The notes beneath the pieces were generated by a model. The model made no database searches. It was not told the origin of the DNA and saw only the letters and a list, made by a program, of their open reading frames with translations. Below, piece by piece: positions 13,383-37,835 of a stretch of DNA of 37,835 bases. Position 1 is the stretch's first letter. Each line of letters begins with the position of its first letter. Origin of the DNA: a virus; the IMG/VR virus record IMGVR_UViG_3300025529_000020, positions 1 through 37,835 of that record. One strand, given 5' to 3'. A program made the translations under genes and the position numbers.

Positions 13383-13700
13383 CTAGGTCACTTTTTTGTA
13401 ACACCAAAATGGGTGTTGCTCTGCCTCACGAACGCGGCGACGACGTGTCCTCGCTGCTGCTGCAGCACCTTCACGTGAGCTCTTCTTCGCGTGGTGGTAG
13501 CGACACAGTGCCTGCAGGTTGTTCAGCGAGTGGTCATCGCCTGCAATGATGTGGTCTACTTCTGTCGCTACCTCAGTACACCGCGTACCAGTATCGACCC
13601 TGATCCACTCGCAGCGATACCCAGCGCGCTCAAGAACGGTAACGCGAATGCGTCTCCAGTTTCGCGGCAGACGGTCGCCGCGGTTGCTTGTACTCCACAT
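13383..13700 (-). CDS. HNH endonuclease (terminase-associated)
   Basis: CxxC ... EVDHII ... NLQALCRYHH motifs; ATG at 13700 with GGAGGGG RBS (ORF-track start at 13712 is an upstream GTG). Confidence 0.8.
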   Translation of the reverse strand: MWSTSNRGDRLPRNWRRIRVTVLERAGYRCEWIRVDTGTRCTEVATEVDHIIAGDDHSLNNLQALCRYHHAKKSSREGAAAAARTRRRRVREAEQHPFWCYKKVT

Positions 13701-13723
13701 ACACCCCTCCACATGAATGGAGG

Positions 13724-13800: not shown

Positions 13801-13836
13801 CCCTACGCGGCCCTCCTTAGACGGTCACCGCAAAAC

Positions 13837-13879
13837 GCGGAGTACAGCTCCCGGTCTGCCCCAGGGCACTGTACTCCGC
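13837..13879 (-). promoter_or_regulatory. Leader hairpin (11-bp stem GCGGAGTACAG/CTGTACTCCGC) followed by GUUUUG on the minus strand
   Basis: Perfect 11-bp inverted repeat with 21-nt loop between promoter-like motif and HNH gene. Confidence 0.5.
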
Positions 13880-13884
13880 TACAT

Positions 13885-13910
13885 AGTGTTACAGGTCCCG
13901 GTGCGCGCTC
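13885..13910 (-). promoter_or_regulatory. Conserved motif site 1 (GTTACAGGTCC ... GCGCGC), candidate phage promoter/operator
   Basis: One of five copies of the same motif, all in intergenic DNA upstream of minus-strand operons. Confidence 0.5.
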
Positions 13911-13917
13911 TCCTAGA

Positions 13918-14018
13918 GGGTGACGAGTGACGAGTTTTTTCGTAGTTTTAGATTGTTCTATATGTATGTATATAGAGCAATATAAAACTAATGTTTAAAT
14001 CGTCATTCGTCATCACTC
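13918..14018. repeat. AT-rich island A, bounded by inverted repeats GTGACGAGTGACGAG / TCGTCATTCGTCATCAC
   Basis: About 65 bp of AT-rich DNA with nested palindrome CTATAT...ATATAG in an otherwise GC-rich genome, flanked by imperfect 15-bp inverted arms. Confidence 0.6.
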
Positions 14019-14030
14019 ACCCCATCTCCT

Positions 14031-15635
14031 CTACTCCGCGTAGACCGCTCCCTCACTCTCCGCGCTCTCCCCAGCGTCTGCCCATTCGATCCGCAGTCGG
14101 TGCGGACCAACGGTGCGTGGCTGTCCGAGTCTTACCGGGTAGATGATGACCCTGTTGATCGCGAGGTGGAGTAGGTCCCGCACCAGCGCTCGCTGTCCGC
14201 GTTCCACTGCGTCCCGCATCGCATCTGCCAGCGTTTCCGGATCGTCCACGAACCCCAAGTCCAACGTTGCTTGTGACCGCGCGATAGCGGCCTGCAGCTC
14301 TCGGAGTTCCGCGGACAGTGACCGCATCTCCGAGACGAACAGCTCCGGAGCGTCCTCGTAGGCTCCTGCCCTGAACGCGTCGTGGAGTCTTTGACGTACG
14401 GTCTCGATTTCTTGGATCCGTGCGCGCTTCGCCGCGATTTCTTCGGACTCGCTTGGTTGTTGTCGAGCTGTCCACCGCTCAGCGATGATCAGTGCGAGCA
14501 TGTCCGTGGGTTCAAGCGCGGTTATTCGGTTGAGCCACTCGGCGATCACGAGCTGCTCTGCGCGTTCTCTGGTGATCCGCGCTGGTGCGGGACATGTGGC
14601 TATCGCGGACGTGACGGATGCGCACACCTGTTGCACACCGGATGCTGGTGCGGAGCGTCCGCATGTGCCACACACCGCGATCCCGGTCAGGATGTGTTTT
14701 CTGTGTCTCGCAGTGGGGCGTACGATGCGGCGACGTGTAGAAAACGTGGTGATGTTCTTTGTGAGCCTTTCGAGGAGCTGCTCTCGCTCGTCCGGCGTGA
14801 GCACACCTTCCCCGATGCTGACGAGTCGACCTTCCTCGTCACGGTAAGGTTCTACCAGGTGGGATTTGCCGTTGTTTGCGCGGCCCGCTACCTGCAGCCC
14901 TGCGATTGCGGGGTTGGTGATCAGGCTGATGTAGGTCGTGACGTACCAGATGCCTCCACTGGGGCCGCGGATGCCGAGTTCGTTCTGTTCAGCAACCACG
15001 CTACGCGCTGAGCGTCCGCCGAGAATCTGTTCCGCTCCCCAACGCAGGACCTGGGCACGCGTTCGACCGTCTTCGGTCGGTGTGGTGTAGTCGGGACGTA
15101 CCTTCCGTGTTTTCGGATCTAAGAGGAGTCCCCACGGCACGCTTCCCCCGATCCATTCTCCGTCTCGGCGTTGCCGGGCCTTGCTGATGTGGATTCTGTG
15201 GGATAGGTCAACGCTGTACTGTCGAGCACGCTCCGCCTCATCGATGATGTGGCGACGGTCATGCTCGTCCAGCGTGTCGTAGCGGTCCCAGTAGAAGATG
15301 ACCCGGTGCTTGCCCAGCATGGGGAGTACGTCTTCTGCGCCTCGACGAGTAAGGCGGTCCAGCCTGAAAACCCACAGTGCCTCGACTTCTCCGCGTTGTA
15401 GTGCGGCAAGTGCCTTTCGGAACACCGGCCGTTCCCGGTCCGCGTATGCGGAGCCTAATTCTCGCCACACGTGCCGTACTTGGCTGCCTACCTGTGCTGC
15501 CCAGTGCCGGCCGATTTCCTCCTGTTCCCGGATGGAGACTTCGCGTAGGCGGTCGCCTTCGGAGAGAACCCGGGATTTCCTCACGTACAGGTCCACCGTT
15601 TTTGGTGGTGGGAGTAGTTGGGAGTGGGGGAACAC
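14031..15635 (-). CDS. Large serine recombinase (phage integrase)
   Basis: N-terminal resolvase-type catalytic motif VDLYVRKSRVLSEG...RLDRLTRR, central recombinase domain, Cys-rich zinc ribbon (CGTCGR...C...C) and coiled-coil C-terminus; GTG at 15635 with GGAGG RBS. Confidence 0.8.
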   Translation of the reverse strand: MFPHSQLLPPPKTVDLYVRKSRVLSEGDRLREVSIREQEEIGRHWAAQVGSQVRHVWRELGSAYADRERPVFRKALAALQRGEVEALWVFRLDRLTRRGAEDVLPMLGKHRVIFYWDRYDTLDEHDRRHIIDEAERARQYSVDLSHRIHISKARQRRDGEWIGGSVPWGLLLDPKTRKVRPDYTTPTEDGRTRAQVLRWGAEQILGGRSARSVVAEQNELGIRGPSGGIWYVTTYISLITNPAIAGLQVAGRANNGKSHLVEPYRDEEGRLVSIGEGVLTPDEREQLLERLTKNITTFSTRRRIVRPTARHRKHILTGIAVCGTCGRSAPASGVQQVCASVTSAIATCPAPARITRERAEQLVIAEWLNRITALEPTDMLALIIAERWTARQQPSESEEIAAKRARIQEIETVRQRLHDAFRAGAYEDAPELFVSEMRSLSAELRELQAAIARSQATLDLGFVDDPETLADAMRDAVERGQRALVRDLLHLAINRVIIYPVRLGQPRTVGPHRLRIEWADAGESAESEGAVYAE

Positions 15636-15668
15636 GAACGCCTCCAAGTGTGTGCTGATGTGCGTAGG

Positions 15669-15674
15669 AGTATA
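15669..15674 (-). promoter_or_regulatory. -10-like hexamer TATACT upstream of integrase start
   Basis: TATACT about 27 nt upstream of the GGAGG RBS, downstream of a terminator. Confidence 0.35.
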
Positions 15675-15705
15675 GCGACCTTGTGGAGTGTTCGTGTTTG
15701 GGCAT

Positions 15706-15744
15706 GAAAAAAGACCCGTTCGCCGTTGGTTGGTGAACGGGTCT
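15706..15744 (-). terminator. Intrinsic terminator (GACCCGTTC...GAACGGGTC stem followed by TTTTTT)
   Basis: 9-bp GC-rich stem and U6 tract on the minus strand; lies inside the over-extended ORF-track integrase ORF. Confidence 0.7.
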
Positions 15745-15762
15745 TGGTCCGCTGATTGGTGC

Positions 15763-15853
15763 GGGACCATCCCCACATGCGTGGGGAGCAGGTTTTGAGG
15801 TCCGTCTAGAGTAAATCCAGGCCGGGACCATCCCCACATGCGTGGGGAGCAGG
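15763..15853. repeat. Two 30-bp direct repeats GGGACCATCCCCACATGCGTGGGGAGCAGG (15763-15792 and 15824-15853), each with an internal hairpin
   Basis: Exact 30-bp duplication with 61-bp period; each copy contains palindrome CCCCAC-ATGC-GTGGGG. Confidence 0.8.
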
Positions 15854-19539: not shown

Positions 19540-19580
19540 CCTATTGGGGTTACAGGTCCTGGTCTCCGGTAGCGCGCGGG
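19540..19580 (-). promoter_or_regulatory. Conserved motif site 2 (GTTACAGGTCC ... GCGCGC)
   Basis: GTTACAGGTCC at 19549-19559 and GCGCGC at 19572-19577, between sigma gene stop and next gene start. Confidence 0.5.
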
Positions 19581-19602: not shown

Positions 19603-20556
19603 TTACGCGGCTGCCAGCTCGACTACTACCCGCCTCAGCTTTCTCAGCGCAGCGGCCTTGAGGGAACGTACACGTCCGGGATCGATTCCCATGATGTGCG
19701 CGGTCTCGGCGACACTGAGTTCCGGACCGCCCAGTCCGGTCAGGTGTACCAGTGCCTCACGCTCCCGGGGGGACACGTGATCGAGCAGACGATGCACGAG
19801 GTCCCGAGTTTCCACACTGGCTAGTGCAGCGGCCGAGCGGTGGCACTCCGCCGTGTCCCCGATGGTCTGCGTGGCGCTCTCGTCACACAGTTCCGACACC
19901 GGGGTATCCACGGACACATAATGTAGGGCTTCGTGGATGGCATCGAACTGTGCGTAGGACAGACCACGTGCGGTTTTGTCGTCTAGCTGCTGTGCCACAT
20001 CTAGCCCTTCCCGCTCCCAGCGTTCAATACGGCGGTCCAGGATGGCGGCAGCCATGTCATCTCCGGAGTCCGCCATGTCCTGCAGTTCTCGGCCGGTCAA
20101 CCCCTCACGGTGGGCCCATTCGCGTGCGAGTACCGGGTCGTGTCCACACGCTTCCATGGCTCTCCAGTAGCGGTGCTGTGCGGACGAGGAGATGCGGAAC
20201 GGGGAGCTGGCTACAGCGGCCTCCCTCACAGCGTTCTGGATGTGGCGATACGCCACGGTCATAGGTTCTGCAGAACCATCCGGGTCGTAGTCTCGCAGAA
20301 CCTCCACCAGCGCCATTAGCGCGGCCTGGTAGAGGTCCGCGTACTCCGCACTACGCTGGTAGTTTCTGACCAGGTGGTGGATCTGGTCTTCGTAACGTGC
20401 GGCAAGGATGACAAGCCCTTCGTCTCCGTACGCGGGGAGCTGACGGTTGGGGACGTGATCAAGGCCCAGACGTTCTTCGTAGGCACGTGCGGCGGTGCGG
20501 ACTGTGGCACGGACGATGTGTGCGGGGGATCTGGTGGCGATCAGTTCATCCAACAT
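19603..20556 (-). CDS. Phage-encoded sigma-70 family RNA polymerase sigma factor
   Basis: Region 2-like segment DLYQAALMALVEVLRDYDP and region 4-like HTH LSVAETAHIMGIDPGRVRSLKAAALRKLRR. Confidence 0.75.
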   Translation of the reverse strand: MLDELIATRSPAHIVRATVRTAARAYEERLGLDHVPNRQLPAYGDEGLVILAARYEDQIHHLVRNYQRSAEYADLYQAALMALVEVLRDYDPDGSAEPMTVAYRHIQNAVREAAVASSPFRISSSAQHRYWRAMEACGHDPVLAREWAHREGLTGRELQDMADSGDDMAAAILDRRIERWEREGLDVAQQLDDKTARGLSYAQFDAIHEALHYVSVDTPVSELCDESATQTIGDTAECHRSAAALASVETRDLVHRLLDHVSPREREALVHLTGLGGPELSVAETAHIMGIDPGRVRSLKAAALRKLRRVVVELAAA

Positions 20557-20967: not shown

Positions 20968-21456
20968 CTAGTCCGTTTGTGGTCCGTCCGTTACTGTGGG
21001 GGATGGTGTGTTTGTGTCCGCAGAGAGCTGACGTAGGTATTGCGCGGCTCTCTCGAGACGTTCGGGATGGTCCCCCATGAGGCCGAGTGCGGCGTTGCAG
21101 GTGTGGCAGAGCAGCCCACGCACCCGGTGAGTCCGGTGGCAGTGGTCGACCACTAGCCTGCTCCCCGGGGGGTACGGGGGACGTGCACAGATCGCGCACC
21201 GCCACCGTTGTGCCCTAGCCATAGCGGTGTAGTCGGCACTCGTGATCCCGTATCTACGCCGCAGTTTGCGGTCACGTTCGACAGTGCGCTGTTTCCGGGT
21301 TCTGCGCTTGCGGTACGCAGACTCGCAGTCGCGGCAGCGCGTGCCACGGCGGTTCCCTCGAGTGCGGGGGAACCTTCCCAGTGGGAGCGTCTGTCCGCAC
21401 GTGCGACAGTCCCGCACATAGGGGTTCACGCCGTGTATTTCCGGTCGTCCGGACAT
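20968..21456 (-). CDS. Endonuclease VII-family (HNH-like) nuclease, probable Holliday junction resolvase
   Basis: Cys clusters CRTCG...CRDC and VVDHCH...GLLCHTCN motif. Confidence 0.65.
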   Translation of the reverse strand: MSGRPEIHGVNPYVRDCRTCGQTLPLGRFPRTRGNRRGTRCRDCESAYRKRRTRKQRTVERDRKLRRRYGITSADYTAMARAQRWRCAICARPPYPPGSRLVVDHCHRTHRVRGLLCHTCNAALGLMGDHPERLERAAQYLRQLSADTNTPSPTVTDGPQTD

Positions 21457-23306
21457 CCGTACCCATCTCCCCAGCTAGTGCCGTAGATTTCGGGTTCGGA
21501 TTCGATCTGAACCCCGAAAAACGGCATCCGCATCCTCTCCCCCACTGCGTTGATCACGTCCTGAGCCTCGTGGCGTGGGGCTTCAACCAGGATTTCGTCA
21601 TGGACCACACCGATGACATAGGGCAGTAGTCCATCAGCGTCCAGATCCACTAGCGCTTGCCCTAGGACATCGCGCGCGGTGGATTGGCACAGGTAGGCGA
21701 TCGCCGTGTACGTTTTGTCGCGGTCCAGGCGCAGCAGCCGACCGGACGGGGTACGCACGGTCATCCCTTGCTGCTGTGCCATACGGGTGAGGTAGCGGGA
21801 GAACCGTGCGATTTCCGGCAACGCGCGGTCGTACTTGGTCACCGCTGCCTGAACCTGCCGCAGTGGGAGTCCAGTTTGCCGCGCCAACGTACGCGCTCCA
21901 CCGGCGTAGGCCTTCCCCAACGAGATCGTCTTGCACAATGACCGCTGATCTTTGGGGACTGGCTCGTTCTCAGGGATGTTGAACACCAGCCTTGTGGTGT
22001 AGGAGTGCAGGTCCTGTCCTTGGTTGATCGCCTCGATGAGGCGTTCGGCTCCTGCCAGCGCTACGAGCACTCGCAGTTCTACCTGAGCTAGGTCACTTGC
22101 GGCGATGAGGTGTCCGGGCTCTGCCACGACACAGCGACGCACTCGCCAGTCCGATGACGGTAGCTGCTGCAGTGGCGGGTTGGACATCGACCACCGGCCG
22201 GTGCGAGCACCTAGCGTGTTGATGTCGGGGTGAATCCTGCCACTGGGGTCTACAAGCTGCAGCATGGCGTGACCGTAGCTGGCAGCCCATTTCTGCGCAC
22301 GCTTCGCGCGGAGAACAGCATCGGCAAGCGGGTTGGGTTCACGGGCTCCCACTCTCCGCCACTGTGTGTCCAGGTCCGCCATAGGCAGAAGCACTTCTTT
22401 ACCCACCGCCAACTGTCCCGTGGCGGTTGTCTCAGTCAGCGTTTCCCCCATGGCCTGCAGTGCAGCAGCCACTTGGGCAGTAGCGTGCACAGACGTCACC
22501 CCGTACCGCCTAGCCACCGCAGTGTAATGGGCAGCCTCGTTTTCCAGCTCATCCACCAGCGACTTTGTGTAGTTGAGGTCCAGCCGCATCCCCTTACGGC
22601 GGATAATGGTCCCAATACGGGCAATGCGGTGTTCGTACTCCGCCAATGTTGCCGGGATGGCAGCGTCCTCACACGCGCGAAGCAGGTGAGGCAGCAGCCG
22701 AGTTACCAACACCACGTCCGCACCTGCATACGTGAGGAACGCCGGAGTATCCAGCGGGAGTTGAGCCCAACCACTCTCCCGGGTGAGCCCATGCTCACGA
22801 AACACTGCAGCCAGTTCCCGCTGACCATCAGTAGCATGCGGATCCACATAGTGCGCTGCCAGGTTTTTGAGGGCATGCCCAGTGCCGCCCTCATACTCCC
22901 GACGAGGGTCATACAAGTGCGCGTAAATGCGGGTATCCCGGATACGCGGCCACAGTTCCTCTACCGGAATGCCCAGGTGGCGGTCTATGACCAGCGTGTC
23001 ATAGGACGCATTGTGGATGACCAGCTTCGGCAGCGTGCGGAGCGCGTATCGAGCAGCGTGAGCGAACACCTCCCCGTACTCAACTGGCAACAGCCACGCC
23101 TCTTCCGGAGTGCCGAACTGGATCAGACGTAGCCGGTGCGAGTGTAGGAACACGTTCAAGCCGGTGGTCTCGGTGTCGACTCCCACCGGTGTACCACGTT
23201 GGGTCATGCGGTCAACCCAGTCGCGAAACACGTGGATGTCATCAGGATGGTCGACCACATACTGTGTCCACCTGATGTTCCCCATACGTTCGTGTGTGAT
23301 GCGCAT
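21426..23306 (-). CDS. DNA polymerase I (family A) with 3'-5' exonuclease domain
   Basis: Exo motif VGVDTETTGL, polymerase motifs DLAQVELRVLVALAG, KTISLGKAYAGG, VHDEILVE; ATG at 23306 with AGGAGAGG RBS (ORF-track start lies inside the primase gene). Confidence 0.85.
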   Translation of the reverse strand: MRITHERMGNIRWTQYVVDHPDDIHVFRDWVDRMTQRGTPVGVDTETTGLNVFLHSHRLRLIQFGTPEEAWLLPVEYGEVFAHAARYALRTLPKLVIHNASYDTLVIDRHLGIPVEELWPRIRDTRIYAHLYDPRREYEGGTGHALKNLAAHYVDPHATDGQRELAAVFREHGLTRESGWAQLPLDTPAFLTYAGADVVLVTRLLPHLLRACEDAAIPATLAEYEHRIARIGTIIRRKGMRLDLNYTKSLVDELENEAAHYTAVARRYGVTSVHATAQVAAALQAMGETLTETTATGQLAVGKEVLLPMADLDTQWRRVGAREPNPLADAVLRAKRAQKWAASYGHAMLQLVDPSGRIHPDINTLGARTGRWSMSNPPLQQLPSSDWRVRRCVVAEPGHLIAASDLAQVELRVLVALAGAERLIEAINQGQDLHSYTTRLVFNIPENEPVPKDQRSLCKTISLGKAYAGGARTLARQTGLPLRQVQAAVTKYDRALPEIARFSRYLTRMAQQQGMTVRTPSGRLLRLDRDKTYTAIAYLCQSTARDVLGQALVDLDADGLLPYVIGVVHDEILVEAPRHEAQDVINAVGERMRMPFFGVQIESEPEIYGTSWGDGYGCPDDRKYTA

Positions 23307-23367
23307 GCCTCTCCTAACGGACAAAGCGGCCCCCACGCAGTGAGCGCAGGGGCCGTACCCAGTGTAC

Positions 23368-25830
23368 CTAGCGTACCTGACCGAACACGTCACGGTTCCC
23401 ACTCTGCGGGGATGGGTGATCCGCCGCAGTGGGGGAGTTCGCGACCAGCCGCACTCCGATGAGTGTCTGACCACGCTTGGTTTTGACGCGGTCAATACCG
23501 CGTTCCTCTAGGGCCCTGTAGAACGTTTGTCGTTTCCACCGTTCCCGCGGAGGCAGGTTTTCCGCCTCACACCAGTCCATGTAGGCGTTGAACGCGGCGT
23601 TACCCAAAACGCGGTCCTCAGGGTTGCCGGTCTTCTCGAGAACGCCGGGTAGAAAACCCGACAGGGCATCCGAGATCTCTCGGTACTCCCTGGTCGCTTT
23701 ACGCACCACTCCCGGATCCTGCAGACCATTCCGGTACCACTCCACAGCCCCGCGGACTGCCCAAGCCAGAATACCTTCGGCTTCCGCACGGAGCTTATCG
23801 GTCAGCTCATAGTCGCGTTCGTGTGGCTCAAACTTCCTCCTAAACGGGATCATCTTCACCCGACGCCACAAACCATCGTCCTGACCACGGAACAGGGGCT
23901 TGTGGTTAGTGTCCATCAACAGCAGGAACGTGGGCACGAACTCGAAGAACTCCTGCCGCAGGAAGCGGGCCACCAGCACGTTTCCACCGGTGGCTTGCTT
24001 GAGCACTCCTTCCGCCATGGGCTTGTCACGGTCGCCTTCAGAAGCCCGGACAATTCGAGCGCCGCGTAGGGCAGCCAAGTCGTTGGGGATACCCCCCGAG
24101 CGCTCCTCGAAAGTACTGAACGGTGTAGTGCGGGAAATAGCAGAAAACACAGACGTGATCGTGTCCATGAACACGCTTTTCCCGTTCGCACCTTTACCCC
24201 ACAGCACAGCGAAGCATTGTTCGGCGGTGCTCCCTGTGATCCCGTACCCGATGAGCCGCTGCATGTACGCGGGCAATTCCGGGTTGTACGGGAAAATCTC
24301 CTCCAAGAATTTTTCCCAGCGCGGGCACTTGGCGTCCGGCCGGTAGTCCACGTCCACGTAGCGGGTGATCATGTCCTCACGGCGGTGGGGACGCAGCATT
24401 CCCGTACGCAGATCGATGGTGCCGTTTCGGACAGCCAACAGGTCCGCACGTGCGTCGAAATCGCTAGCGCGGACGCGCACACCAGGGACGCTTTGCAACT
24501 CGCGAATGATGTGGTCAATACTCCTGGTCATGAGGAAGCTTCGAGCTTCCTTGGCCTTCCCTACAAGAGCGAGTGCCGCACCAATGCGGTAAACCTCCTG
24601 TCGCACATGGGACTCGGACGGTACCCAGCAGCGTCCATCCCACACGAAAAAGCCCAGCCCAGGCGCGTAGCGGATACGGTTGTCCGCGAACGCCACCAGT
24701 ACGTGAGCCCGCATAACGTCCGTATCCGACTCTGAGAACCGGTCGTGGTACGCACGGTACAACTCGGCGGCGCGTTCCCCATCCTCACGAGTGACCGCAT
24801 CCAGCCCGGTGCGGCTCAGCGCTTCCTTAGCGTCGATGCGCCGTTCCTCGTCCGGAGTGCGGACAGGGCGGGCGGCGCGTACCGCTTCGTGGAGTTTCCC
24901 CGCGAACCCTGCAGGGTCGCGTTCCCGCCAGTCGGTGAGGTCGTCTCCGGCGTTGGGGATGACCAGGTGCCGAACCTCAACCCCGTGGTTACGGAGCGCG
25001 GTGGAGATAGTCTGAGTGAACCGCTGCCCCGCCTCGTCCGCGTCCCCCGCTACCACGACGAGGGAGTCCTTCAGCGCTTCCGCCAGTTCACGTGCGAGTG
25101 CCTCACTCGACATCGCTGCACCGCGGACCGCCACAGCGTCATAACCTGCAGCGACCGCGGTGAGCGCGTCCCCAGGCCCTTCCGTGATGACCACTACGCC
25201 GTAGGATCCGCCGCCGCGCAAAAATCCGTATCGTTGCCACACCTTCCCCTGGGGGTTGCTCAGGCTCACCCACCGGGCTTGACACTTCCCAGTCAGGTCC
25301 CTGCCCTGCAGGCCGCGCACAGTACCGTGGCGGTCGTAGAGAGGGACCACCAGTCGCGGAAACGCGCGGTACGTGCGGGACAGATACGGCAACGTGAACA
25401 CGTCACCGCCCGGGTCAACGCCCACACCGAGATCCGCGGCCTGGTCAACGGTCAACCCGAACCGCCGCTCCACATACTCGGCGGCTAGACGGGCATCGTC
25501 GGTGTACTGTTCCCGAAGCCGCTTGGACGTAGCGTCCACGTATGCGGCGACCGCGGCGATCTCTGCAGGGCCCACCTGGTCAGGCTGGGTGGTGATGAGC
25601 TGTTCCGGTGCGGTCCACTGAAACAGGTCGCGTTCCTGCATGCCGAGTCGTTTCAGAACGTCCTTGGTCTCGCATCCAGCGCGGCAAGTCATCAGCAGCC
25701 TTCCTTCGTTAGTCACCGCCAGCGCGAGTGACGGCCGCTGGTCATCATGTGCAGGACAGTGCACCACCATGTTGCGGCCCTCGTTGACAACGTGCGGAAA
25801 ACGCTCCAGGAACTTGTTGAAGTCGCGCAT
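23368..25830 (-). CDS. Bifunctional primase / D5-like helicase (zinc-binding, Toprim, P-loop NTPase)
   Basis: HCPAHDD...CRAGC zinc motif, Toprim-like ITEGPGDALT, Walker A GKGANGKS; ATG at 25830 with GAGGGGAAG RBS. Confidence 0.75.
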   Translation of the reverse strand: MRDFNKFLERFPHVVNEGRNMVVHCPAHDDQRPSLALAVTNEGRLLMTCRAGCETKDVLKRLGMQERDLFQWTAPEQLITTQPDQVGPAEIAAVAAYVDATSKRLREQYTDDARLAAEYVERRFGLTVDQAADLGVGVDPGGDVFTLPYLSRTYRAFPRLVVPLYDRHGTVRGLQGRDLTGKCQARWVSLSNPQGKVWQRYGFLRGGGSYGVVVITEGPGDALTAVAAGYDAVAVRGAAMSSEALARELAEALKDSLVVVAGDADEAGQRFTQTISTALRNHGVEVRHLVIPNAGDDLTDWRERDPAGFAGKLHEAVRAARPVRTPDEERRIDAKEALSRTGLDAVTREDGERAAELYRAYHDRFSESDTDVMRAHVLVAFADNRIRYAPGLGFFVWDGRCWVPSESHVRQEVYRIGAALALVGKAKEARSFLMTRSIDHIIRELQSVPGVRVRASDFDARADLLAVRNGTIDLRTGMLRPHRREDMITRYVDVDYRPDAKCPRWEKFLEEIFPYNPELPAYMQRLIGYGITGSTAEQCFAVLWGKGANGKSVFMDTITSVFSAISRTTPFSTFEERSGGIPNDLAALRGARIVRASEGDRDKPMAEGVLKQATGGNVLVARFLRQEFFEFVPTFLLLMDTNHKPLFRGQDDGLWRRVKMIPFRRKFEPHERDYELTDKLRAEAEGILAWAVRGAVEWYRNGLQDPGVVRKATREYREISDALSGFLPGVLEKTGNPEDRVLGNAAFNAYMDWCEAENLPPRERWKRQTFYRALEERGIDRVKTKRGQTLIGVRLVANSPTAADHPSPQSGNRDVFGQVR

Positions 25831-25889
25831 ACTTCCCCTCGCAGTGTGCTTACCTGAGAAACCGGTTCCGCGCTTGCGGTGTAACGGGC

Positions 25890-26267
25890 TTATTGCCGGA
25901 GCTCTTTGACCACGCGCACGAACGTCGCACCGGACATGACCACCAAGCACTCGTGGGGACCGCGACCACGAACTTTCACCGCGGCCACACCGAAAGGCAG
26001 TCCAGCGTTCCGCGCTTCCTGTTCGGCTTGGCGAACGTACGCGGGCAGCTCGTGACGTGCCGTGTTTTTACACTCCACGACAAACGGGACTACCCACAGA
26101 TCCCCTACGTCGTGTATCCCCTGCTGTGCTTGGCGACGTGCGTTCAGTGGGGATGTGGGATCTAGGAACTCGTCTCCATCAGGGGTCACGAGCCCCAGTT
26201 CTCGGTTGAGGTAGCGTGCGAACTCGGTTTCCCACCGAGTCCCACGTCTTTTATTCGGGTTAGCCAC
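25890..26267 (-). CDS. PD-(D/E)xK family nuclease, possible Holliday junction resolvase (VRR-NUC-like)
   Basis: E...D(VGD)...ExK (VVECK) arrangement in a 125-aa protein next to replication genes. Confidence 0.45.
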   Translation of the reverse strand: MANPNKRRGTRWETEFARYLNRELGLVTPDGDEFLDPTSPLNARRQAQQGIHDVGDLWVVPFVVECKNTARHELPAYVRQAEQEARNAGLPFGVAAVKVRGRGPHECLVVMSGATFVRVVKELRQ

Positions 26268-27844: not shown

Positions 27845-28540
27845 TTACTGCGACGCTGCTCCCAGAACACGGAGTACCGGGCGACGGTAGCTCACTGTAC
27901 GCCCCGCCATCTCTCCGCTTTTAGGCACAAAAGACACGTTCTCCAACACGAGGTCGCACCTTGCGGGACCACCCACCGCCGCAAGATCTTCCTGGTAGAG
28001 GTGGAGATAGCTCAGGAAATCCCAGCTCGCGGAGTGGAACCGGAACTCGCCGAGCTCCGGATCATCCGCCAGCCGGAACCGGATCTGCACATCCGGCTTG
28101 GGACCTCGACCTGCTTTTGCCGCGGCCTTCCGCTCAGCCAGCAGCTCCGGACACCCACACGGTTGACCGCGGCGATCCTCGTCCAGGAACGTGACCCCAT
28201 CGCACTCGTGAATACGAACACCGCCCAGTCCCCACAGAACGAGGCGAGCAGAGATAACGTCCGGGCTGGAGATGATCACCGGCAGCGTGTCGGTCTCAGT
28301 GATCACCTCCAGATTGTCTTCTTTAGCGGTGTCCCACTCGGCGACCTCTCCCCCGTACGCGCTCGCCACGGCGTTAGCGACTTCCGGGTCACCGGTGGTG
28401 ATACGCCACGTGGACAGACTCACCGGACGACCGTTGACGGACTTCCCCGAACGAACGCGGCCCACCACGTCGTCCGGGAACGTCATGCGCTTCTTAGGAG
28501 CCGCGTCGGGGTCAGTCTCGAAAATCCTAACTTTCACCAT
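27845..28540 (-). CDS. Hypothetical protein (231 aa), possible recombination partner of the adjacent exonuclease
   Basis: ORF two genes downstream of the RecB-like exonuclease; no recognisable motif. Confidence 0.4.
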   Translation of the reverse strand: MVKVRIFETDPDAAPKKRMTFPDDVVGRVRSGKSVNGRPVSLSTWRITTGDPEVANAVASAYGGEVAEWDTAKEDNLEVITETDTLPVIISSPDVISARLVLWGLGGVRIHECDGVTFLDEDRRGQPCGCPELLAERKAAAKAGRGPKPDVQIRFRLADDPELGEFRFHSASWDFLSYLHLYQEDLAAVGGPARCDLVLENVSFVPKSGEMAGRTVSYRRPVLRVLGAASQ

Positions 28541-28786: not shown

Positions 28787-29614
28787 CTAGGTTCGCCGCT
28801 GTGTGCCAGTCAACAACTGTCCGCCAGTCGCCAACGGGGATCCCAACACTGCCCGTGCCTCCTCACGCTGCCACGTGAGTGCCTCACGGAGCGCCAGAAA
28901 CACCTGATGCATTTCTGCATCCACTCGGACCGGTACCAGTGACCACCGCTCCGGGGTCACGTGGAGCACTGCGCCGCCATCCACACGCGGCATGTCCCGG
29001 GAAGTACCGTCTACGCCGATCAGGCGATCTGCGTACGCGTACGCGGACAACTGCAACGCAACAGTGGGATACACGTCACGGGACGTTTTCCAGTCCACGA
29101 TGATCAGATGCGGAGTCCCTGATCTGTCCGGGGTGGGGGTACGGTCCGGAGCCAGCCAGACACGCAGCAGAGCATCAAAGCTGCCTGCGTACCGAAACCT
29201 GTCCGACCACACCACCTCCTCAGCTGCCACGAGCTCAGGACGTACCGTGTCCAGAAACTCCGCAAAATGATTGCGGTACGGGACGAGGTCGTGCTCCACG
29301 TAACGCGGAGACTCCCCCCTGAGCATGCGCTCAAACAGATCGTGAGCTTTGCTGCCCAGCTCAGCTCGTGCTTGCGTATACCGCCGTGGCGCGGCCTTGA
29401 GCAGGTCTATCGCGGCGGTGGGGTCTGTCTGGACCAGGCCTTGTACCGTATTCCAGTTCTCCACCGCGTACGTTGCCACAGTTTTCGCGGCCCACGGTGG
29501 TAAGAAAGGCTTGTCCAGGACGCTGATGATAGAGGTTACCCCAGGCACTTTGGTGCCAGTGTCGGGGTCCACATACCAGCGCGCTCCCCCACGGGTGAGG
29601 GTTCGGATGGTCAT
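28787..29614 (-). CDS. PD-(D/E)xK (RecB/Cas4-like) exonuclease
   Basis: Motifs D...LIIVDWKTSR and QLSAYAYA (QxxxY); ATG at 29614 with AAAGGAGC RBS. Confidence 0.6.
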   Translation of the reverse strand: MTIRTLTRGGARWYVDPDTGTKVPGVTSIISVLDKPFLPPWAAKTVATYAVENWNTVQGLVQTDPTAAIDLLKAAPRRYTQARAELGSKAHDLFERMLRGESPRYVEHDLVPYRNHFAEFLDTVRPELVAAEEVVWSDRFRYAGSFDALLRVWLAPDRTPTPDRSGTPHLIIVDWKTSRDVYPTVALQLSAYAYADRLIGVDGTSRDMPRVDGGAVLHVTPERWSLVPVRVDAEMHQVFLALREALTWQREEARAVLGSPLATGGQLLTGTQRRT

Positions 29615-29635: not shown

Positions 29636-29672
29636 TCCTAGTTACAGGTCCGCAGCGTGGGGAGCGCGCGTA
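29636..29672 (-). promoter_or_regulatory. Conserved motif site 3 (GTTACAGGTCC ... GGGGAGCGCGCG) with adjacent A5T5 tract
   Basis: First copy of a tandemly duplicated ~117-bp promoter-like unit upstream of the exonuclease gene. Confidence 0.5.
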
Positions 29673-29752
29673 CCGTGGCAGAAAAATTTTTGGTCGACGT
29701 GCTCCGCACCTGGTGAGGGTTCGGATCGCCACGTCGCCCCTTCCGGATCTGT

Positions 29753-29790
29753 CTCTAGTTACAGGTCCGCGGCGGTGGGAGCGCGCGGGT
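29753..29790 (-). promoter_or_regulatory. Conserved motif site 4 (tandem duplicate of site 3)
   Basis: Second copy: GTTACAGGTCC at 29758-29768, GCGCGC at 29781-29786, A4T4 tract at 29798-29808. Confidence 0.5.
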
Positions 29791-29883
29791 CGCGGCAGAA
29801 AATTTTCTGACCGACGTAGCTGCAGCGGGATGGGCACGGAGAGTGAGGGCATGCCCTACGCGGAGTAGAGGAGATGGGGGAGT

Positions 29884-29977
29884 GGTGACGAGTGACGATT
29901 TAGACCTTGTTTTTGTAGTGCTATAGGAGAACCCATAGAACAATGCAAAAACAGGGTCTACATCGTCACTCGTCACC
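29884..29977. repeat. AT-rich island B, bounded by perfect 16-bp inverted repeats GGTGACGAGTGACGAT / ATCGTCACTCGTCACC
   Basis: Perfect 16-bp inverted arms, inner inverted repeat AGACCTTGTTTTTG/CAAAAACAGGGTCT, AT-rich centre. Confidence 0.7.
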
Positions 29978-30048
29978 CCTGGACGAAGAAACCCCGCCAT
30001 CCGTGTCCGGACAGCGGGGCTTCTACGTCGTGTTACTACACCGCGTCG

Positions 30049-30732
30049 CTACCCCAGCGCGGAGCGCAGTACGGCCACGCTTTCTTCAAGCGACACTATC
30101 GCGGCCTGGATCGTTTCCCGCGGCTTACCGGTCAGCGCCACGGTGGCAGACACCGCATCCCTTGCCGCGGTCACGTTCCGTACGTCCTCAGCCAGCTGGC
30201 TCACCGCGCGCACCACATCCTCCGGTGGGCTGTCGGGGTGTACTGTGATGGCCTCTAGTCGACGTAGCGCAGTTTCCGCGCGCTGCCGCTGGCGCTCTCG
30301 GCGTTCCGCCTGCCGTTCTTTCGGCGGTGTCGGGGTGATGCCGTAGTGCGCCAGCGCTTCCGGCGTGTACAGTCCGTTAGCGCGCATGTAGTCGATCCGC
30401 AGCGCTGCCACGTGGTATCTGATCAGCGACTGTAGAGACGCTTCGGAGTCGCTGGGGATGCCGGCTTTCTCATACAGCTGCTGGACTGCTTCCCGGTATC
30501 CCGGGGACGTGCCGCACAGATCTGGCCAACCATCCTTATCCCGGTAGCGTGCCCGCAGATGCAGCACTACCAGCGCTAGGTTGCGTGCTGTTTGTGTCGC
30601 ACGGCCCTGCAGTCTCACATAGTCGCGCACCAGTTTTGCGCCACGGTCGATGAGCTCGTGTACAGGTGCGTCATCCTGGAACACCGTGGCCTCGTCATCT
30701 CGCGGTGGAGTTACCAGCTGTAGTTGTGTCAT
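30049..30732 (-). CDS. Hypothetical protein (227 aa)
   Basis: ATG at 30732; Arg/Glu-rich helical segment ERQAERRERQRQRAE. Confidence 0.45.
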   Translation of the reverse strand: MTQLQLVTPPRDDEATVFQDDAPVHELIDRGAKLVRDYVRLQGRATQTARNLALVVLHLRARYRDKDGWPDLCGTSPGYREAVQQLYEKAGIPSDSEASLQSLIRYHVAALRIDYMRANGLYTPEALAHYGITPTPPKERQAERRERQRQRAETALRRLEAITVHPDSPPEDVVRAVSQLAEDVRNVTAARDAVSATVALTGKPRETIQAAIVSLEESVAVLRSALG

Positions 30733-30804: not shown

Positions 30805-31464
30805 TCATAGGTCGTCTGCGGAACGGTACAGCTCCCCACACTGCGTACATGCCACGGTCTGCGCGTTCAGCACAGTGCGGGACAGCCATAGTGGTCGTTC
30901 CGGAACACAGCGGCACACCGCCTTCGGGCGACGGTTGCTGCTGTGCGGGGTACGTTTCGTTCCGGTGTTCCGTTCCGCGTTCCGTTCCGGATCGGCGTTC
31001 TCCCACTCGCTGCGGCCCACTGCGGCTTCCGCCACGCACGCGGCCCACTCCCCGATCTCGGTGGGGAGCCTCATGTCCGCGTACCCCACATCTTGAGGGG
31101 GGTTGCCACCGCGCCACTCCAGTCCCATGTGTTCCGCTAGTGCGCGGAACCGCGAGTTATGATATCGGCCGCGCTTGGAGGTGTCCGCAACCCCGAGAGC
31201 GTGTGCAAGGGCATGTGCCGCTTCATGGGCAACTTGGCACACCACCTCACGAGGGGGGCGAGCTAGCGCATCGGGGAGTGTCTGCAGCACGTGTGTGTCG
31301 CCAAGAGAAGGCGTGAACCGCAACCACGCGTTCGTGCGTCCGATGGTGGGGACTACGTTCACGGTGACTGCGGGTAGTTGTGGTTCTCGTTCTCGCAGCA
31401 GGTCCCAGATGCGGCGTAGGGTGCGCGCGGTGACTTGCTCTGGGCTCATCTGTGTGGTTGACAT
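30805..31464 (-). CDS. HExxH zinc metallopeptidase (SprT-like or ImmA/IrrE-like) with C-terminal Cys-rich zinc ribbon
   Basis: VAHEAAHALAHALG (HExxH) and C-terminal CRCVPERP...CTQCGELY; ATG at 31464 with GGGGGA RBS (start uncertain, the ORF extends to 31524). Confidence 0.5.
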   Translation of the reverse strand: MSTTQMSPEQVTARTLRRIWDLLREREPQLPAVTVNVVPTIGRTNAWLRFTPSLGDTHVLQTLPDALARPPREVVCQVAHEAAHALAHALGVADTSKRGRYHNSRFRALAEHMGLEWRGGNPPQDVGYADMRLPTEIGEWAACVAEAAVGRSEWENADPERNAERNTGTKRTPHSSNRRPKAVCRCVPERPLWLSRTVLNAQTVACTQCGELYRSADDL

Positions 31465-31561: not shown

Positions 31562-32401
31562 TTACGCCGGAACTGTCGTGGCCAGTTTCCGTCGCGCGTC
31601 GCGTAGCACGTTCCTTCCCCAGCGGTCCGTGCGTCCGTAGCGGGTCCCGATTTCCGCTCCGGTGAGCGTGGTTCCGTTCCGGAGCTGTTCCGCGACCCAT
31701 TCGACAGCGGAACGGCGTTCCGCGCTGTGCGGGGGTACCACGGACACCGGAACGGTCGTAGGGGCTCCCTCCTCCACTACCGGAACGCGGACATTCCGTT
31801 CCTCGTCCCGCTGTTGTTCCTCGTTCCGCTCTTCGTTCCGCGCTGTTCCGCTCTTCGTTCCGCTGCTGTTCCGTTCCTCGTTCCGTTCCTCGTCCCCCGG
31901 TTGTTCCGTGTTCCGTTCCTCGTCCCGTTCCCCATTCCGCTGTTGTTCCTCGTCCCGTTCCTCGTTCCGCTCTTCGTTCCGTTCCTCGTTCCGCTGCTGT
32001 TCCGCCCTGTTCCGTCTACCTGCAGCAAGGGCCACCGACGCAACGACCACTAGTCCATCTACAGACAGTGGCAGCAGGATGGCCACAAGCTCCGACTCCC
32101 CGTACTGGAGCAGGAGCCCGCGCATGTGACCGTAGGAGACCACGGCCGCGGCCAGCGCTACGAGGAAAGCTCCCACCCACTCAACTGCGGACAGCAGTCC
32201 ACGCGGACGCTGTCCACGAACCATCATCTCTGCGACCAACAGCAGCGCTACCGGTGCCCATGCCGCAAACAGCATGGCACCGATGTCTGTTCCGTCCGCG
32301 TTCCGTTCCGCGGCGTGTGCCACGTTCGCGGCGATGCTGGCTCCTGCGCCGAGTAGGAACGCTGTCCAGGGGATGGCGTTTGATCTCGGTTTTCCGCTCA
32401 C
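31562..32401 (-). CDS. Membrane protein with central EERN tandem-repeat low-complexity region (start uncertain)
   Basis: Three or more hydrophobic helices, then (EERN)n repeats, then Arg-rich C-terminus; first possible start after the upstream gene stop is GTG at 32401. Confidence 0.45.
   Translation of the reverse strand: MSGKPRSNAIPWTAFLLGAGASIAANVAHAAERNADGTDIGAMLFAAWAPVALLLVAEMMVRGQRPRGLLSAVEWVGAFLVALAAAVVSYGHMRGLLLQYGESELVAILLPLSVDGLVVVASVALAAGRRNRAEQQRNEERNEERNEERDEEQQRNGERDEERNTEQPGDEERNEERNSSGTKSGTARNEERNEEQQRDEERNVRVPVVEEGAPTTVPVSVVPPHSAERRSAVEWVAEQLRNGTTLTGAEIGTRYGRTDRWGRNVLRDARRKLATTVPA
31790..32015. repeat. Imperfect tandem array of GTTCC(G/T)-containing units (about 12-bp period) encoding EERN repeats
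   Basis: Plus strand reads TTCCGTTCCTCGTTCCGCT... repeatedly; translates as EERNEERNEERDEE on the minus strand. Confidence 0.8.
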
Positions 32402-32514
32402 TCGTGGGTTCTCCGTTCCGTTCCGCTGTTTCCGTTCCGGGGCTTCCGTTCCGCCAGCGGTCCGGGAATTCCGTTCCGCTGGCGTTCCTCTACTTCCGTT
32501 CCGCTGGTGTTCCT
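32402..32514. repeat. Iteron-like array: five direct copies of TTCCGTTCCGC(T/C)(G/A)G (minus-strand CCAGCGGAACGGAA) in intergenic DNA
   Basis: Copies at about 32414, 32431, 32445, 32470 and 32494 between the stop of gene 32515..32937 and the start of the membrane protein gene. Confidence 0.7.
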
Positions 32515-32937
32515 CTACTCCCGCTCCGCCACTCGGTGACCGTGTTCCGTGGCCTCCACGTAAACCGCTCCAGCCTTCCGAAACGCCCTCAGCATCCCCC
32601 GCTCCAAGAGCGCAGTGATATGGCGTGCGGTTACTCCTGCAGCGCGGCACGCACTCGGCGACATGTGCAGCGCTCCGTTCTTGATGATGGTGCGCAGTGC
32701 GTTCCGCTGCTTCGCCGAGAGTGTGCGCGCGTTGAGCCGTCGTCCGCGACGCACTGCTTCCGCGGCCTGTTCGGGGGTTGTATACCGGAACGATAGATAA
32801 CCCACCCCCAACAGGTAGGCCCTCCACGGCCGAGCGGGGTTGTCGCCACGCCAAGAGACCAGGCCGATGATCTCGGGGCCGTTCTCACTGAGAACCACGC
32901 GCTCTGGGCGGGACGGGCGGTTGTTCTGTGTGGTCAT
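32515..32937 (-). CDS. Hypothetical protein (140 aa), possibly DNA-binding
   Basis: ATG at 32937 with GGAGG RBS downstream of terminator H3; Arg/Lys-rich. Confidence 0.45.
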   Translation of the reverse strand: MTTQNNRPSRPERVVLSENGPEIIGLVSWRGDNPARPWRAYLLGVGYLSFRYTTPEQAAEAVRRGRRLNARTLSAKQRNALRTIIKNGALHMSPSACRAAGVTARHITALLERGMLRAFRKAGAVYVEATEHGHRVAERE

Positions 32938-35981: not shown

Positions 35982-37835
35982 CTATAGTCCGACAATCGCT
36001 CCGCGGAACAGTCGAATCTCCGTTCCCGCCGTATGGGGTTTGTGGATCCCGTTGGTAGCGCGCTGCACAGTGAACGTCTGCGTGGTGCCTGTTCCGGAGA
36101 TCGAGGCCACGCGTACAAGCTCCCCACCAACGAACATGTCCACAGGAAACGCCTGCGGCTCTTCTTCCGTGGTCACCCAGCGCGGTCCCCGAGTGGTGCG
36201 CACCGTGAACGTGGTTTGGACGCTGTCAACGTCCTCGTCCAGCTCCGCACCGGCAGTGTCAGCGCGGCACTGATCCTGCGGACCCACGTCCCCATCCGGA
36301 TCCGCGATCACCCCAATGAGCAGCGGTCCACCGGACGAGGCATTGAACGTCACCTCCCACGTGTGCGGGCCTAGACGCTCCTCATAGCCCTCGATCTGCA
36401 GTTCGATGGGCTCTGGTGGTAGCCACGGCGGTGGGTTGATGATCTGCAGGGCATCCCCCGAGTCGCGCACAGCCACGATGTCGACGAGGCCAGGGTTGCG
36501 TGCCAGGTTGATCGTGACCGTGGGGTACCGGGCATCGTCCCACGTGCCCAGGTGCAGCCGCCAATGCGCTAGGTCCCACAATTGACGTTCGTGGGCTGCA
36601 TGTAACGTCTCGGACTGCTCGTAGCGTCCCACGCCCAGTGGAGGCGGCTGCACTGATAGTGCGCCTTCCTCCAGCACCGCGCGGTACTCCGTACCCCGTG
36701 GCATGCTCACGGTCACATCATTAGCTAGCCGCTGGTCATCCTCGATAGGCTCCCACGGCTCGCTGATGTGTCCCGCACTGTAGTCCAGCACCACGGACAC
36801 CGCGGTATCGGTACGCGCTCGGCCACGGAACACCAGTCCCCCACGTGCCGCACACGTGCCGTGTTTGCGTGCTGTGGCGAACTCCCCCACGGTCATGCCG
36901 CCGAGAGCACTCCCACGGCCGTGGTGGAGCACATCAACGTGGTGGGATCCCACATGCATCCCGCCGAGCGCATCCGTGACCGCGGTGCGAGAACCCGCAA
37001 CTGCAGCACCGTCCACCGTGAAACGGCTCACGGCCGCACCCTGCGGTACCGCGTACCCTGATGCATGACCACCAAAGCTCAGGCCACCGGACGCTGTCGC
37101 GCCAGCTCGACGAGCCTCAGCGTGACCGCCCATGGTCAGCCAGTGCATCGCCCACGTCCAGCGTGGCGGTGGTGCGGGGCCGAGTGGACCGTCATCGGCG
37201 ACAGCTACGTGGGACACCCACAGTGAGGGTGGGTAGCCCTGGCCGCGGTGAAGACGTAGCGCAAGGTCGATTGCCGCCAACGTTTCAGGACCGACAACAC
37301 CATCGACTGGTAGCCCGTAGTCAGCCTGAAACGCTTGGACCGCTGTGACCGTTTCCCCACCATAGTCGCCATCCGCACCGTACAGCGGCAGCGGATACCC
37401 CAGCTCGAGCAGGGCTTCCTGCATGGCGGTGATTTCCGTATCCCCACGCGAAGCATCCGACTGGCCAGGGAGCAAGATGATACCGCGGCGGTAGCGGTAC
37501 CCGGTCAGCACCAGCTGGCCATGGAACGTGTACCCATTCCAACGGTGGATCCGTGTACGGTCACCAGCGGGGTTTGTCACCCGAGACTCGAAGAAGGCAC
37601 TTCCATCAGTATGGAATTCGACCAACCACCACTGGCCGATGGGGACCGCGTTACCTGTCTCTTCTGTCCAGTTGATAGCTGTTGCGGCCAGATCGTCAGG
37701 CTGGAGCCGAGTCCCGATGTTGCCGGACGCGGTCTCGTGAACCACCCATCCCAGCCCCGCAGTCGGGAAATGCGCGACCCAGCGCACCTCGTTGATCCCG
37801 TGTCCCGCTGCCTGCAGTCCCGGTGCCCACATGTA
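35982..37835 (-). CDS. Tail protein with peptidoglycan-binding domain (3' portion; N-terminus wraps to 385-1)
   Basis: 616-aa ORF reaching the window edge; PG-binding-like segment ITAMQEALLELGYPLPLYGADGDYGGETVTAVQAFQADYGLPVDGVVGPETLAAI; in frame with the upstream ATG at 385. Confidence 0.6.
   Translation of the reverse strand, partial: YMWAPGLQAAGHGINEVRWVAHFPTAGLGWVVHETASGNIGTRLQPDDLAATAINWTEETGNAVPIGQWWLVEFHTDGSAFFESRVTNPAGDRTRIHRWNGYTFHGQLVLTGYRYRRGIILLPGQSDASRGDTEITAMQEALLELGYPLPLYGADGDYGGETVTAVQAFQADYGLPVDGVVGPETLAAIDLALRLHRGQGYPPSLWVSHVAVADDGPLGPAPPPRWTWAMHWLTMGGHAEARRAGATASGGLSFGGHASGYAVPQGAAVSRFTVDGAAVAGSRTAVTDALGGMHVGSHHVDVLHHGRGSALGGMTVGEFATARKHGTCAARGGLVFRGRARTDTAVSVVLDYSAGHISEPWEPIEDDQRLANDVTVSMPRGTEYRAVLEEGALSVQPPPLGVGRYEQSETLHAAHERQLWDLAHWRLHLGTWDDARYPTVTINLARNPGLVDIVAVRDSGDALQIINPPPWLPPEPIELQIEGYEERLGPHTWEVTFNASSGGPLLIGVIADPDGDVGPQDQCRADTAGAELDEDVDSVQTTFTVRTTRGPRWVTTEEEPQAFPVDMFVGGELVRVASISGTGTTQTFTVQRATNGIHKPHTAGTEIRLFRGAIVGL
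37709..37835. repeat. Terminal direct repeat: exact duplicate of 1-127
   Basis: Identical to window start; an ORF reads through the junction in frame. Confidence 0.9.

Follow-up and report, generated by a model that had tools for sequence, protein, structure and literature searches.

What are the two strongly AT-rich islands, each bracketed by inverted repeats, that lie at operon boundaries in the viral sequence IMGVR_UViG_3300025529_000020? The window that we analyzed, by which we mean the whole 37,835-nucleotide stretch of that IMG/VR record, contains one such island at 13918–14014 (L1) and another at 29884–29977 (L2), and an initial annotation had offered three candidate functions for them: a replication origin or unwinding element, a binding platform for a dimeric regulator, or a cruciform-forming recombination site. 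Bases 1–127 of the window form a perfect 127-nt terminal direct repeat with bases 37709–37835. We interpret this identity as an assembly overlap, and the window is therefore treated as the map of a circularly closed genome of 37,708 bp. With the gene maps of phiC31 and phiBT1 as the basis for comparison, its gene content and order match those of phiC31-like (Lomovskayavirus-like) temperate Streptomyces phages:

30049–30732, minus strand: repressor-c-like gene.
28787–29614, minus strand: gp1, a Cas4-type exonuclease.
27845–28540, minus strand: gp3-like recombination directionality factor.
23368–25950, minus strand: primase-helicase (Toprim, D5_N, SF3 helicase and C-terminal winged helix), likely start ATG at 25833.
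21426–23495, minus strand: family-A DNA polymerase.
Between the polymerase and sigma factor genes in minus-strand order: endonuclease VII.
19603–20556, minus strand: sigma factor.
14031–15839, minus strand: large serine integrase.
13383–13712, minus strand: HNH endonuclease, followed by the small and large terminase and structural genes.

An Rfam scan of the whole window gave zero matches at the gathering threshold, and a scan of the window for tRNA and tmRNA genes found none. A perfect 31-nt direct repeat (15762–15792 and 15823–15853), which includes the palindrome CCCCACGCATGTGGGG and spans the annotated start codon of the integrase, may be attP or a site that regulates int.

The inverted arms that the initial annotation had described at both loci, perfect at the second, are borne out by closer inspection. 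At L2, GGTGACGAGTGACGAT (29884–29899) pairs with ATCGTCACTCGTCACC (29962–29977) at 16 of 16 bp, and the inverted repeat reaches 45-nt arms with 84% complementarity (29881–29925 and 29936–29980); at L1, GGTGACGAGTGACGA (13918–13933) faces TCGTCATTCGTCATC (14000–14014) with two G-to-A differences. Two points had been overlooked: each arm is made of two tandem heptamers GTGACGA, and the L1 and L2 elements duplicate one another. The window holds three exact copies of a 14-mer and one more copy with two mismatches, all four of them at L1 and L2, and the heptamer GTGACGA shows no enrichment in the genome outside the two loci. The strongly AT-rich interior was also described correctly, as the L1 and L2 cores are the two most AT-rich 60-nt segments of the genome (GC 0.22 and 0.37, compared with about 0.61 overall). 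The parts of the two elements are as follows:

29884–29899, plus strand: L2 left arm, tandem iterons GTGACGA at 29885–29891 and 29892–29898.
29900–29961: L2 AT-rich, internally palindromic core; candidate DNA unwinding element.
29962–29977, minus strand: L2 right arm, iterons GTGACGA at 29963–29969 and 29970–29976.
13918–13933, plus strand: L1 left arm, tandem iterons GTGACGA at 13920–13926 and 13927–13933.
13934–13999: L1 AT-rich palindromic core, GC 0.22, the genome minimum.
14000–14014, minus strand: L1 right arm, degenerate iterons ATGACGA at 14000–14006 and 14007–14013.
29979–30029, minus strand: GC-rich terminator-type hairpin that ends the repressor-like gene, directly before L2 (−39.3 kcal/mol, z −8.5).
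29758–29768, minus strand: promoter-like GGACCTGTAAC downstream of L2, heading gp1; a second copy lies at 29641–29651.
13888–13898, minus strand: promoter-like GGACCTGTAAC, 20 nt downstream of L1, heading HNH/terminase, named by analogy with the mapped phiC31 late promoter.

Both loci had been placed at operon boundaries, immediately upstream of a recurring motif, which is true in the direction of transcription, the flanking genes lying on the minus strand. In minus-strand order, the repressor-c-like gene is followed by the GC-rich terminator hairpin, L2, two GGACCTGTAAC motifs and gp1, and the serine integrase is followed by L1, GGACCTGTAAC, HNH and terminase. The motif, which reads GTTACAGGTCC on the plus strand, has five exact copies in the window (at 13888, 19549, 29641, 29758 and 34005 in plus-strand coordinates); all five are oriented with transcription and have GCGCGC ahead of them, and the motif is probably a promoter class read by the phage sigma factor (19603–20556). 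L1 and L2 precede only the copies that head gp1 and HNH/terminase, not those at 19549 and 34005. Directly downstream of the HNH/terminase promoter motif, at 13829–13879 on the minus strand, a stable hairpin followed by GUUUUG (−33 kcal/mol, z −4.1) has the look of an attenuator, or of an anti-termination site, where the late operon begins. Cumulative GC-skew minima lie near L1 and L2; we left them out of the evidence because gene strand and composition confound them.

A BLAST search of GenBank phages with the window element gave zero matches, and relatives were therefore reached through proteins. An exact 15-mer scan of IMG/VR returned the element in 2 of 50 matches, both of them 100% identical fragments of the window phage; a metagenome search with gp1 added short contigs only, and HNH-anchored loci, mostly from unrelated phages, were no help toward L1-type copies. 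The gp1-anchored sample comprised 60 viral-contig loci and 24 prophage loci. Of the 60 viral loci, 56 carry an element no more than 330 nt upstream of gp1, just past the terminator of the preceding gene (11 of 360 random control windows scored as well), and prophages in Streptomyces and Kitasatospora genomes also carry it. The layout is constant and consists of two to three tandem repeats of 7–9 bp, an AT-rich core of 45–65 bp, and two to three inverted copies of the same repeat. The repeat itself varies by lineage: it is GTGACGA or GTGAYGNN in the window, phiC31, phiBT1 and many others, GTGTAGAA in the Rowa group and GTGCAGAW in the Sebastisaurus group, and GGACGTTC, GTGGTGAA, GTGTCGAA and GGTCAAAA are further lineage-specific types. 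Conservation of the arms in related genomes, the check proposed in the initial annotation, thus extends across the family as regards architecture and position and breaks down as regards the arm sequence. At one locus (L137) the repeat spacing is 7 nt on one side of the element and 8 nt on the other, which argues that it is the motif, and not base pairing, that is kept.

The window, phiC31, phiBT1, Rowa and Sebastisaurus each contain two copies of the element, with the same iteron type and at the same two positions. In complete genomes one copy lies before gp1 and the other in the interval that separates the integrase from the start of the late operon (tRNA/HNH/cos); the phiC31 copies (21664–21754 and 40446–40538) form a 120-nt repeat with 76% identity.

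Several features of individual loci were recorded alongside the survey. AT-rich cores in many loci often hold two CTATAG-, CTAAGG- or CATAGA-like heptamers 10–12 nt apart (for example, 22984–23010 in L352, 21700–21730 in L057 and 29918–29945 in the window), which might serve as a further recognition motif or as a site of priming or melting. Relatives of 44–49 kb (L258, L259, L263, L272–L274 and L279) have larger versions of the element, with two direct GTGACGAA iterons and an inward-facing GTCAC in each arm and a CTCCTCCTCC polypyrimidine run in the core. Elsewhere in the window, dense 12-nt-periodic GTTCCGTTCC repeats occupy 31790–32010, 32433–32529 and 30962–30995, in or near a 430-aa ORF (31562–32854; DUF2637 plus an excisionase-like segment), and similar CGGAACGG arrays lie upstream of the element in relative L056.

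Which protein might read the iterons? The 860-aa ORF at 23368–25950 matches the Pfam families Toprim, D5_N and DUF5906 and the PHROG category DNA primase, and its best PDB sequence match is the PriRep protein of SaPI5 (7OLA). We predicted the structure of its last 135 residues with AF2; modelled residues 40–111 are confident (pLDDT 80–88) and have the fold of a winged helix:

23443–23658, minus strand: predicted winged-helix domain of the primase-helicase, whose wing hairpin holds the covarying residue described below.

When the modelled winged helix was compared with known structures by Foldseek, the RFX DNA-binding domain ranked first. The entry 1KA8, the P4 alpha structure reportedly solved by Yeo et al. 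(2002), was found by fold comparison of the winged helix only; a profile search of the winged helix against PDB sequences missed it and thus gave no sequence-level homology to the P4 origin-binding domain. Because of its Toprim/D5_N/SF3 make-up and its C-terminal winged helix, we assign the protein to the P4 alpha/SaPI Rep architecture.

We then compared the primases with the iterons. A set of 29 complete primases was typed by iteron before alignment (17 G, 8 T, 2 C and 2 W). Of 791 alignment columns, one separates all four iteron types (I/M/N/V, purity at least 0.88), in a sample of few independent lineages in which the C and W types have two sequences each and the sequences within a type are related. 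The same column has the highest mutual information (1.50 bits vs 1.26 for the next), and in the control, the adjacent gene gp1, none of 271 columns separates the types and the maximum mutual information is 1.21. The covarying position, residue 789 in the 821-aa form, opens the second strand of the wing hairpin and lies next to a stretch of basic residues. Isoleucine is found here in the D type (GGACGTTC) as well, but with an insertion in the wing; in the window clade, the "G-type" position is occupied by glutamine (Q). In a comparison of domain-wise identity with iteron type, divergence of the winged helix was matched by divergence of the Toprim domain.

On balance we lean toward the interpretation that L1 and L2 are initiator-binding elements of the origin type used by self-loading SF3 primase-helicases, and are hence candidate replication origins. 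An origin or unwinding element was among the functions first put forward for these loci, and the combination of iterons with an AT-rich core, a primase-helicase of the P4 alpha/SaPI Rep type, and the covariation of iterons with the wing favours it, to a degree that we would place a little above even. In the mechanism that we propose, the C-terminal winged-helix domain of the primase-helicase (23368–25950, minus strand) would bind the opposed tandem pairs of GTGACGA iterons, and hexamers would assemble on both flanks of the 62–66-bp AT-rich core. The core, predicted to be the easiest-melting DNA of the genome, would act as the unwinding element; the helicase would then unwind the duplex, and its own Toprim domain would prime synthesis for the phage family-A polymerase. 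Each copy lies directly upstream of a putative outward-firing phage promoter, at the heads of the early and late operons, so that negative supercoiling behind RNA polymerase could aid opening. The second copy may serve either as an additional origin or as a helper site similar to crr. A simple origin model does not call for two copies per genome, and both copies lie at about −20 to −130 from the operon-start promoters, which is also the expected place for an upstream regulatory site.

The last point leads to the strongest of the alternatives, which we nevertheless regard as unlikely: that L1 and L2 are upstream regulatory or architectural elements. The iterons would bind either an early protein of the phage or the initiator in the role of transcription factor, and the element would activate, insulate or time the early gp1 promoter and the late promoter, with a core that is bendable or UP-like; late transcription, for example, could be coupled to replication. 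Each copy lies just upstream of a phage-specific promoter motif. This motif differs by lineage (GGACCTGTAAC in the window, its analogue, the "ep" motif GGGTTGCCGACTCCCTTAC, in phiC31, and GGCATTCGACTCACTAGA in Rowa), and it begins 5–25 nt from the end of the element in phiC31 and 20–116 nt from it in the window. The motif that follows phiC31 copy B, at 40565–40585, is annotated in GenBank X91149 as the experimentally mapped "late lytic" promoter, and the element is confined to the promoters that start the two large operons. However, one and the same element stands before early and late promoters alike and therefore cannot alone set their timing. A 60-bp core of 22–37% GC between opposed sets of iterons resembles an origin more than an activator site, a residue in the wing of the primase-helicase varies with iteron type, and no conserved small DNA-binding gene accompanies the element (phiC31 gp54 and Rowa gp27–29 have no counterpart in the window). 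A sigma-70-type promoter within the core was also considered and was rejected, there being a single weak match, in L1; phiC31-type cores inspected by eye contained no acceptable −10/−35 pair.

A dimeric regulator had been proposed as the protein that binds the islands. The arms do read as protein-binding repeats, which sustains part of that proposal, but they are not repressor operators, whose sequences differ in both phiC31 and Rowa. The phiC31 operator, CIR (CCTACTCACGTGAGTAGG), is annotated as repressor-bound in X91149, and the Rowa operator is CACCTCCGAAAATCCGGAGGTG, with about 15 copies; both are unlike the iterons of their own phages. GTGACG-type iterons coexist with the 683-aa phiC31 repressor and also with repressors that lack a tblastn match to it (in L285, L327 and the window). 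Because GTGA is common to CIR and the iterons, we considered whether the iteron is a repressor half-site; this was rejected, as the Rowa operator is unrelated to Rowa's own iterons and repressors vary independently of iteron type. A phiC31-type operator was rejected for similar reasons: the iteron sequence is unrelated, there are just two loci, and the same iteron type occurs with unrelated repressors. Like the elements, CIRs are inverted-repeat DNA found near phage promoters in the same phage family. In contrast to them, CIRs are contiguous palindromes of about 17 bp (CTACTCACGTGAGTAG) with at least nine copies in the scanned 23.5-kb stretch of phiC31, whereas elements of the L1/L2 type span about 95–120 bp, number two per genome, and persist across phages with unrelated repressors. 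In the window, the AT palindromes CAGAAAATTTTCTG and CAGAAAAATTTTTG at 29679–29692 and 29796–29809, beside both gp1 promoter repeats (2 observed vs 0.36 expected), are candidate operators of the short repressor-like protein.

The initial annotation had also drawn attention to the length of the stem and the size of the loop. Both are real in the window. RNA folding gave z scores on the plus and minus strands of −11.3 and −12.0 for L2 and −10.8 and −6.2 for L1, with 0 of 200 shuffled sequences folding as well, and DNA folding gave −11.6 for L2 and −8.8 for L1. DNA folding of the homologous elements gave z −2.0 for phiC31 and −1.1 for Rowa, no better than shuffles. Strong hairpin or cruciform potential is thus a trait of the window clade (the window, L053, L055 and L354) and not of the family, and because homologues outside this clade lack significant hairpin potential, we regard the long stem and large loop as a clade-specific detail and not the essence of the element. 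Among 48 distinct elements, the mismatches between the arms comprised 193 non-pairing combinations, 72 antisense wobbles and 55 sense wobbles, with no sense-strand G·U bias. On the mismatch types and the folding of the homologues, we rejected selection for an RNA hairpin.

These results bear on a second alternative, to which we give little credence: that the elements are bidirectional factor-independent terminators or insulators, in which a long hairpin keeps transcription of the repressor and integrase genes from running on into the early and late operons, respectively. Both loci lie directly downstream of genes and upstream of promoters, the RNA hairpins of the window are highly stable (−50 to −62 kcal/mol on the plus strand), and there is a likeness to the terminators without poly-U that Ingham and colleagues reportedly described in the phiC31 early region in 1995. 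With intrinsic terminators, including this poly-U-less type, L1 and L2 share the stable stem-loop potential (in the window phage) and the intergenic site after genes; they differ in being AT-rich inside, in having no U-tract, in having arms that are sequence-conserved tandem repeats, and in having a hairpin that is not conserved in relatives. Neither strand of L1 or L2 contains a U-tract or T-run, and no terminator-like match overlaps either element. L2 is already preceded by an ordinary GC-rich terminator hairpin, and the RNA transcribed from L1 (minus strand) folds far less stably than its antisense (−35.4 vs −50.4 kcal/mol). The phiC31 and Rowa elements would form outer stems of only about 13 bp around loops of 55–60 nt, most arm mismatches are non-compensable, and the arms are conserved as repeats with variable spacing. 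An intrinsic terminator in the strict sense was rejected on the lack of a U-tract and of a terminator match, the weak folding of the phiC31 and Rowa homologues, and the absence of sense G·U bias. Long AT-rich "hairpins" in phiC31-family phages should not be labelled terminators in annotation.

The two loci also share sequence beyond their arms, which had been overlooked:

14020–14072: L1 flank, comprising a spacer and the last 14 integrase codons.
29827–29879: inverted copy of the L1 flank, beside L2.

These 53-nt flanks are in inverted orientation and 83% identical, and the copy beside L2 would encode just a 12-codon ORF remnant. A copy of the L1 flank accompanies the L2-type element in relative L056 and is absent in L055 and L354, which indicates that the flank is dispensable; it is probably the footprint of gene conversion between the two palindromic elements. 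The element copies are direct repeats in phiC31, phiBT1, Rowa and Sebastisaurus, and their relative orientation is ambiguous in the window, where each copy is strongly palindromic. An apparent cassette swap of the element is seen in L127 (JAFIDK010000020.1), a 5.2-kb contig that is filed under Algoriphagus aestuarii, probably through contamination, and whose gp1 is 92% identical to that of the window phage. At 1860–2000 of this contig, within an upstream flank common with L060, the GTGACGA arms are replaced by a perfect inverted repeat of 24 nt, TATCACGTTTCTAGGATGTTAGTT, that encloses an AT-rich core; scans of viral and metagenome sequences found no longer contig with this deviant arm.

That L1 and L2 are a cruciform recombination site, a MITE-like small mobile palindromic element or a serine integrase site is very improbable: L1 and L2 are both inverted and direct relative to each other, the copied integrase-end flank points to sequence exchange between the loci, and the close relative L127 has a wholly different arm within the same flank, but the copies are just two and are fixed at two syntenic positions even in distant relatives, the homology past the arms is one-sided with no target-site duplications or duplicated flanks, the gene order between the copies is never inverted, and the attP of phiBT1 is annotated upstream of int, away from the element. 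The MITE-like form was discarded on the number, placement and flanks of the copies, and the cruciform-forming recombination site of the initial annotation finds no support, given the lack of cruciform potential in most relatives, including phiC31 and Rowa.

The preferred reading, a pair of candidate replication origins, so far draws on comparative and structural inference. None of the matched phiC31-family GenBank records (14 full-genome records among 16 matches) carries an annotation under the element. A full-text literature search found no description of it, in a search that did not reach older subscription papers on phiC31, in which an earlier mention is possible. For phiC31 and its relatives, model phages of Streptomyces from which widely used integrases derive, the comparison provides a testable origin candidate in the form of phiC31 21664–21754 and 40446–40538, together with a domain of the candidate initiator and one particular wing residue. 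If it is correct, the "self-loading SF3 helicase plus iteron" origin type of SaPI and P4 would extend to a large group of actinobacterial temperate phages, the conserved non-coding module at both operon heads would be accounted for, and swappable pairs of iteron and winged-helix specificity would become available for phage-derived Streptomyces replicons.

The closest known systems are the origins of SaPI and P4. The SaPI origin consists of iterons of 5–6 nt around an AT-rich center, with at least two opposed iterons on each side, which are read by the C-terminal winged helix of the SF3 Rep protein (PMC9371898). L1 and L2 resemble it in having short opposed iterons, at least two per side, around an AT-rich center, and the primase-helicase resembles Rep/PriRep, an SF3 helicase initiator that is fused to a primase in SaPI5 and whose C-terminal winged helix reads the iterons (PMC9371898). 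The iterons are fewer than in SaPI, two to three per side, and are 7–9 bp long. The SaPI origin is single and lies immediately 3′ of rep, whereas the window element has two copies, each abutting a phage-specific promoter. The SaPI rule that the origin adjoins the initiator gene does not hold at L1 or L2: L2 lies about 4 kb upstream of the primase start and L1 about 9.5 kb past the primase end, and the distance in relatives is 3.1–6 kb.

The ori and crr sites of P4 and its alpha protein were reportedly the subject of work by Ziegelin and colleagues in 1993 and by Flensburg and Calendar in 1987. The C-terminal winged helix of alpha reads the origin iterons, which are octamers, TGTTCACC (on the other strand, GGTGAACA). 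P4 ori and crr are separate cis sites, each bound by the initiator, that lie 4.5 kb apart and not at operon heads, and crr is made of repeats of about 120 bp. The iterons are alike (GGTGAACA in P4 and GGTGACGA in the window), as is the presence of two separated sites, and the repeats of about 120 bp in crr compare with the 120-nt repeat of phiC31; the difference is that the P4 sites lie away from operon heads and the window elements lie at them. A bolder version of the comparison, and in our judgment rather a long shot, is that L1 and L2, instead of being redundant origins, form a bipartite system like P4 ori plus crr, in which a hexameric primase-helicase would bridge the heads of the early and late operons through its six winged helices. 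Origin firing would then license the adjacent late promoter physically and topologically, as a replication-coupled early-to-late switch across the phiC31 family, and the lineage-specific iteron/wing pairs would be replication "incompatibility" types that separate co-infecting relatives. Elements of this kind are already known from SaPI and P4; their occurrence in actinobacterial phages, and their placement as two copies at operon heads, would be new.
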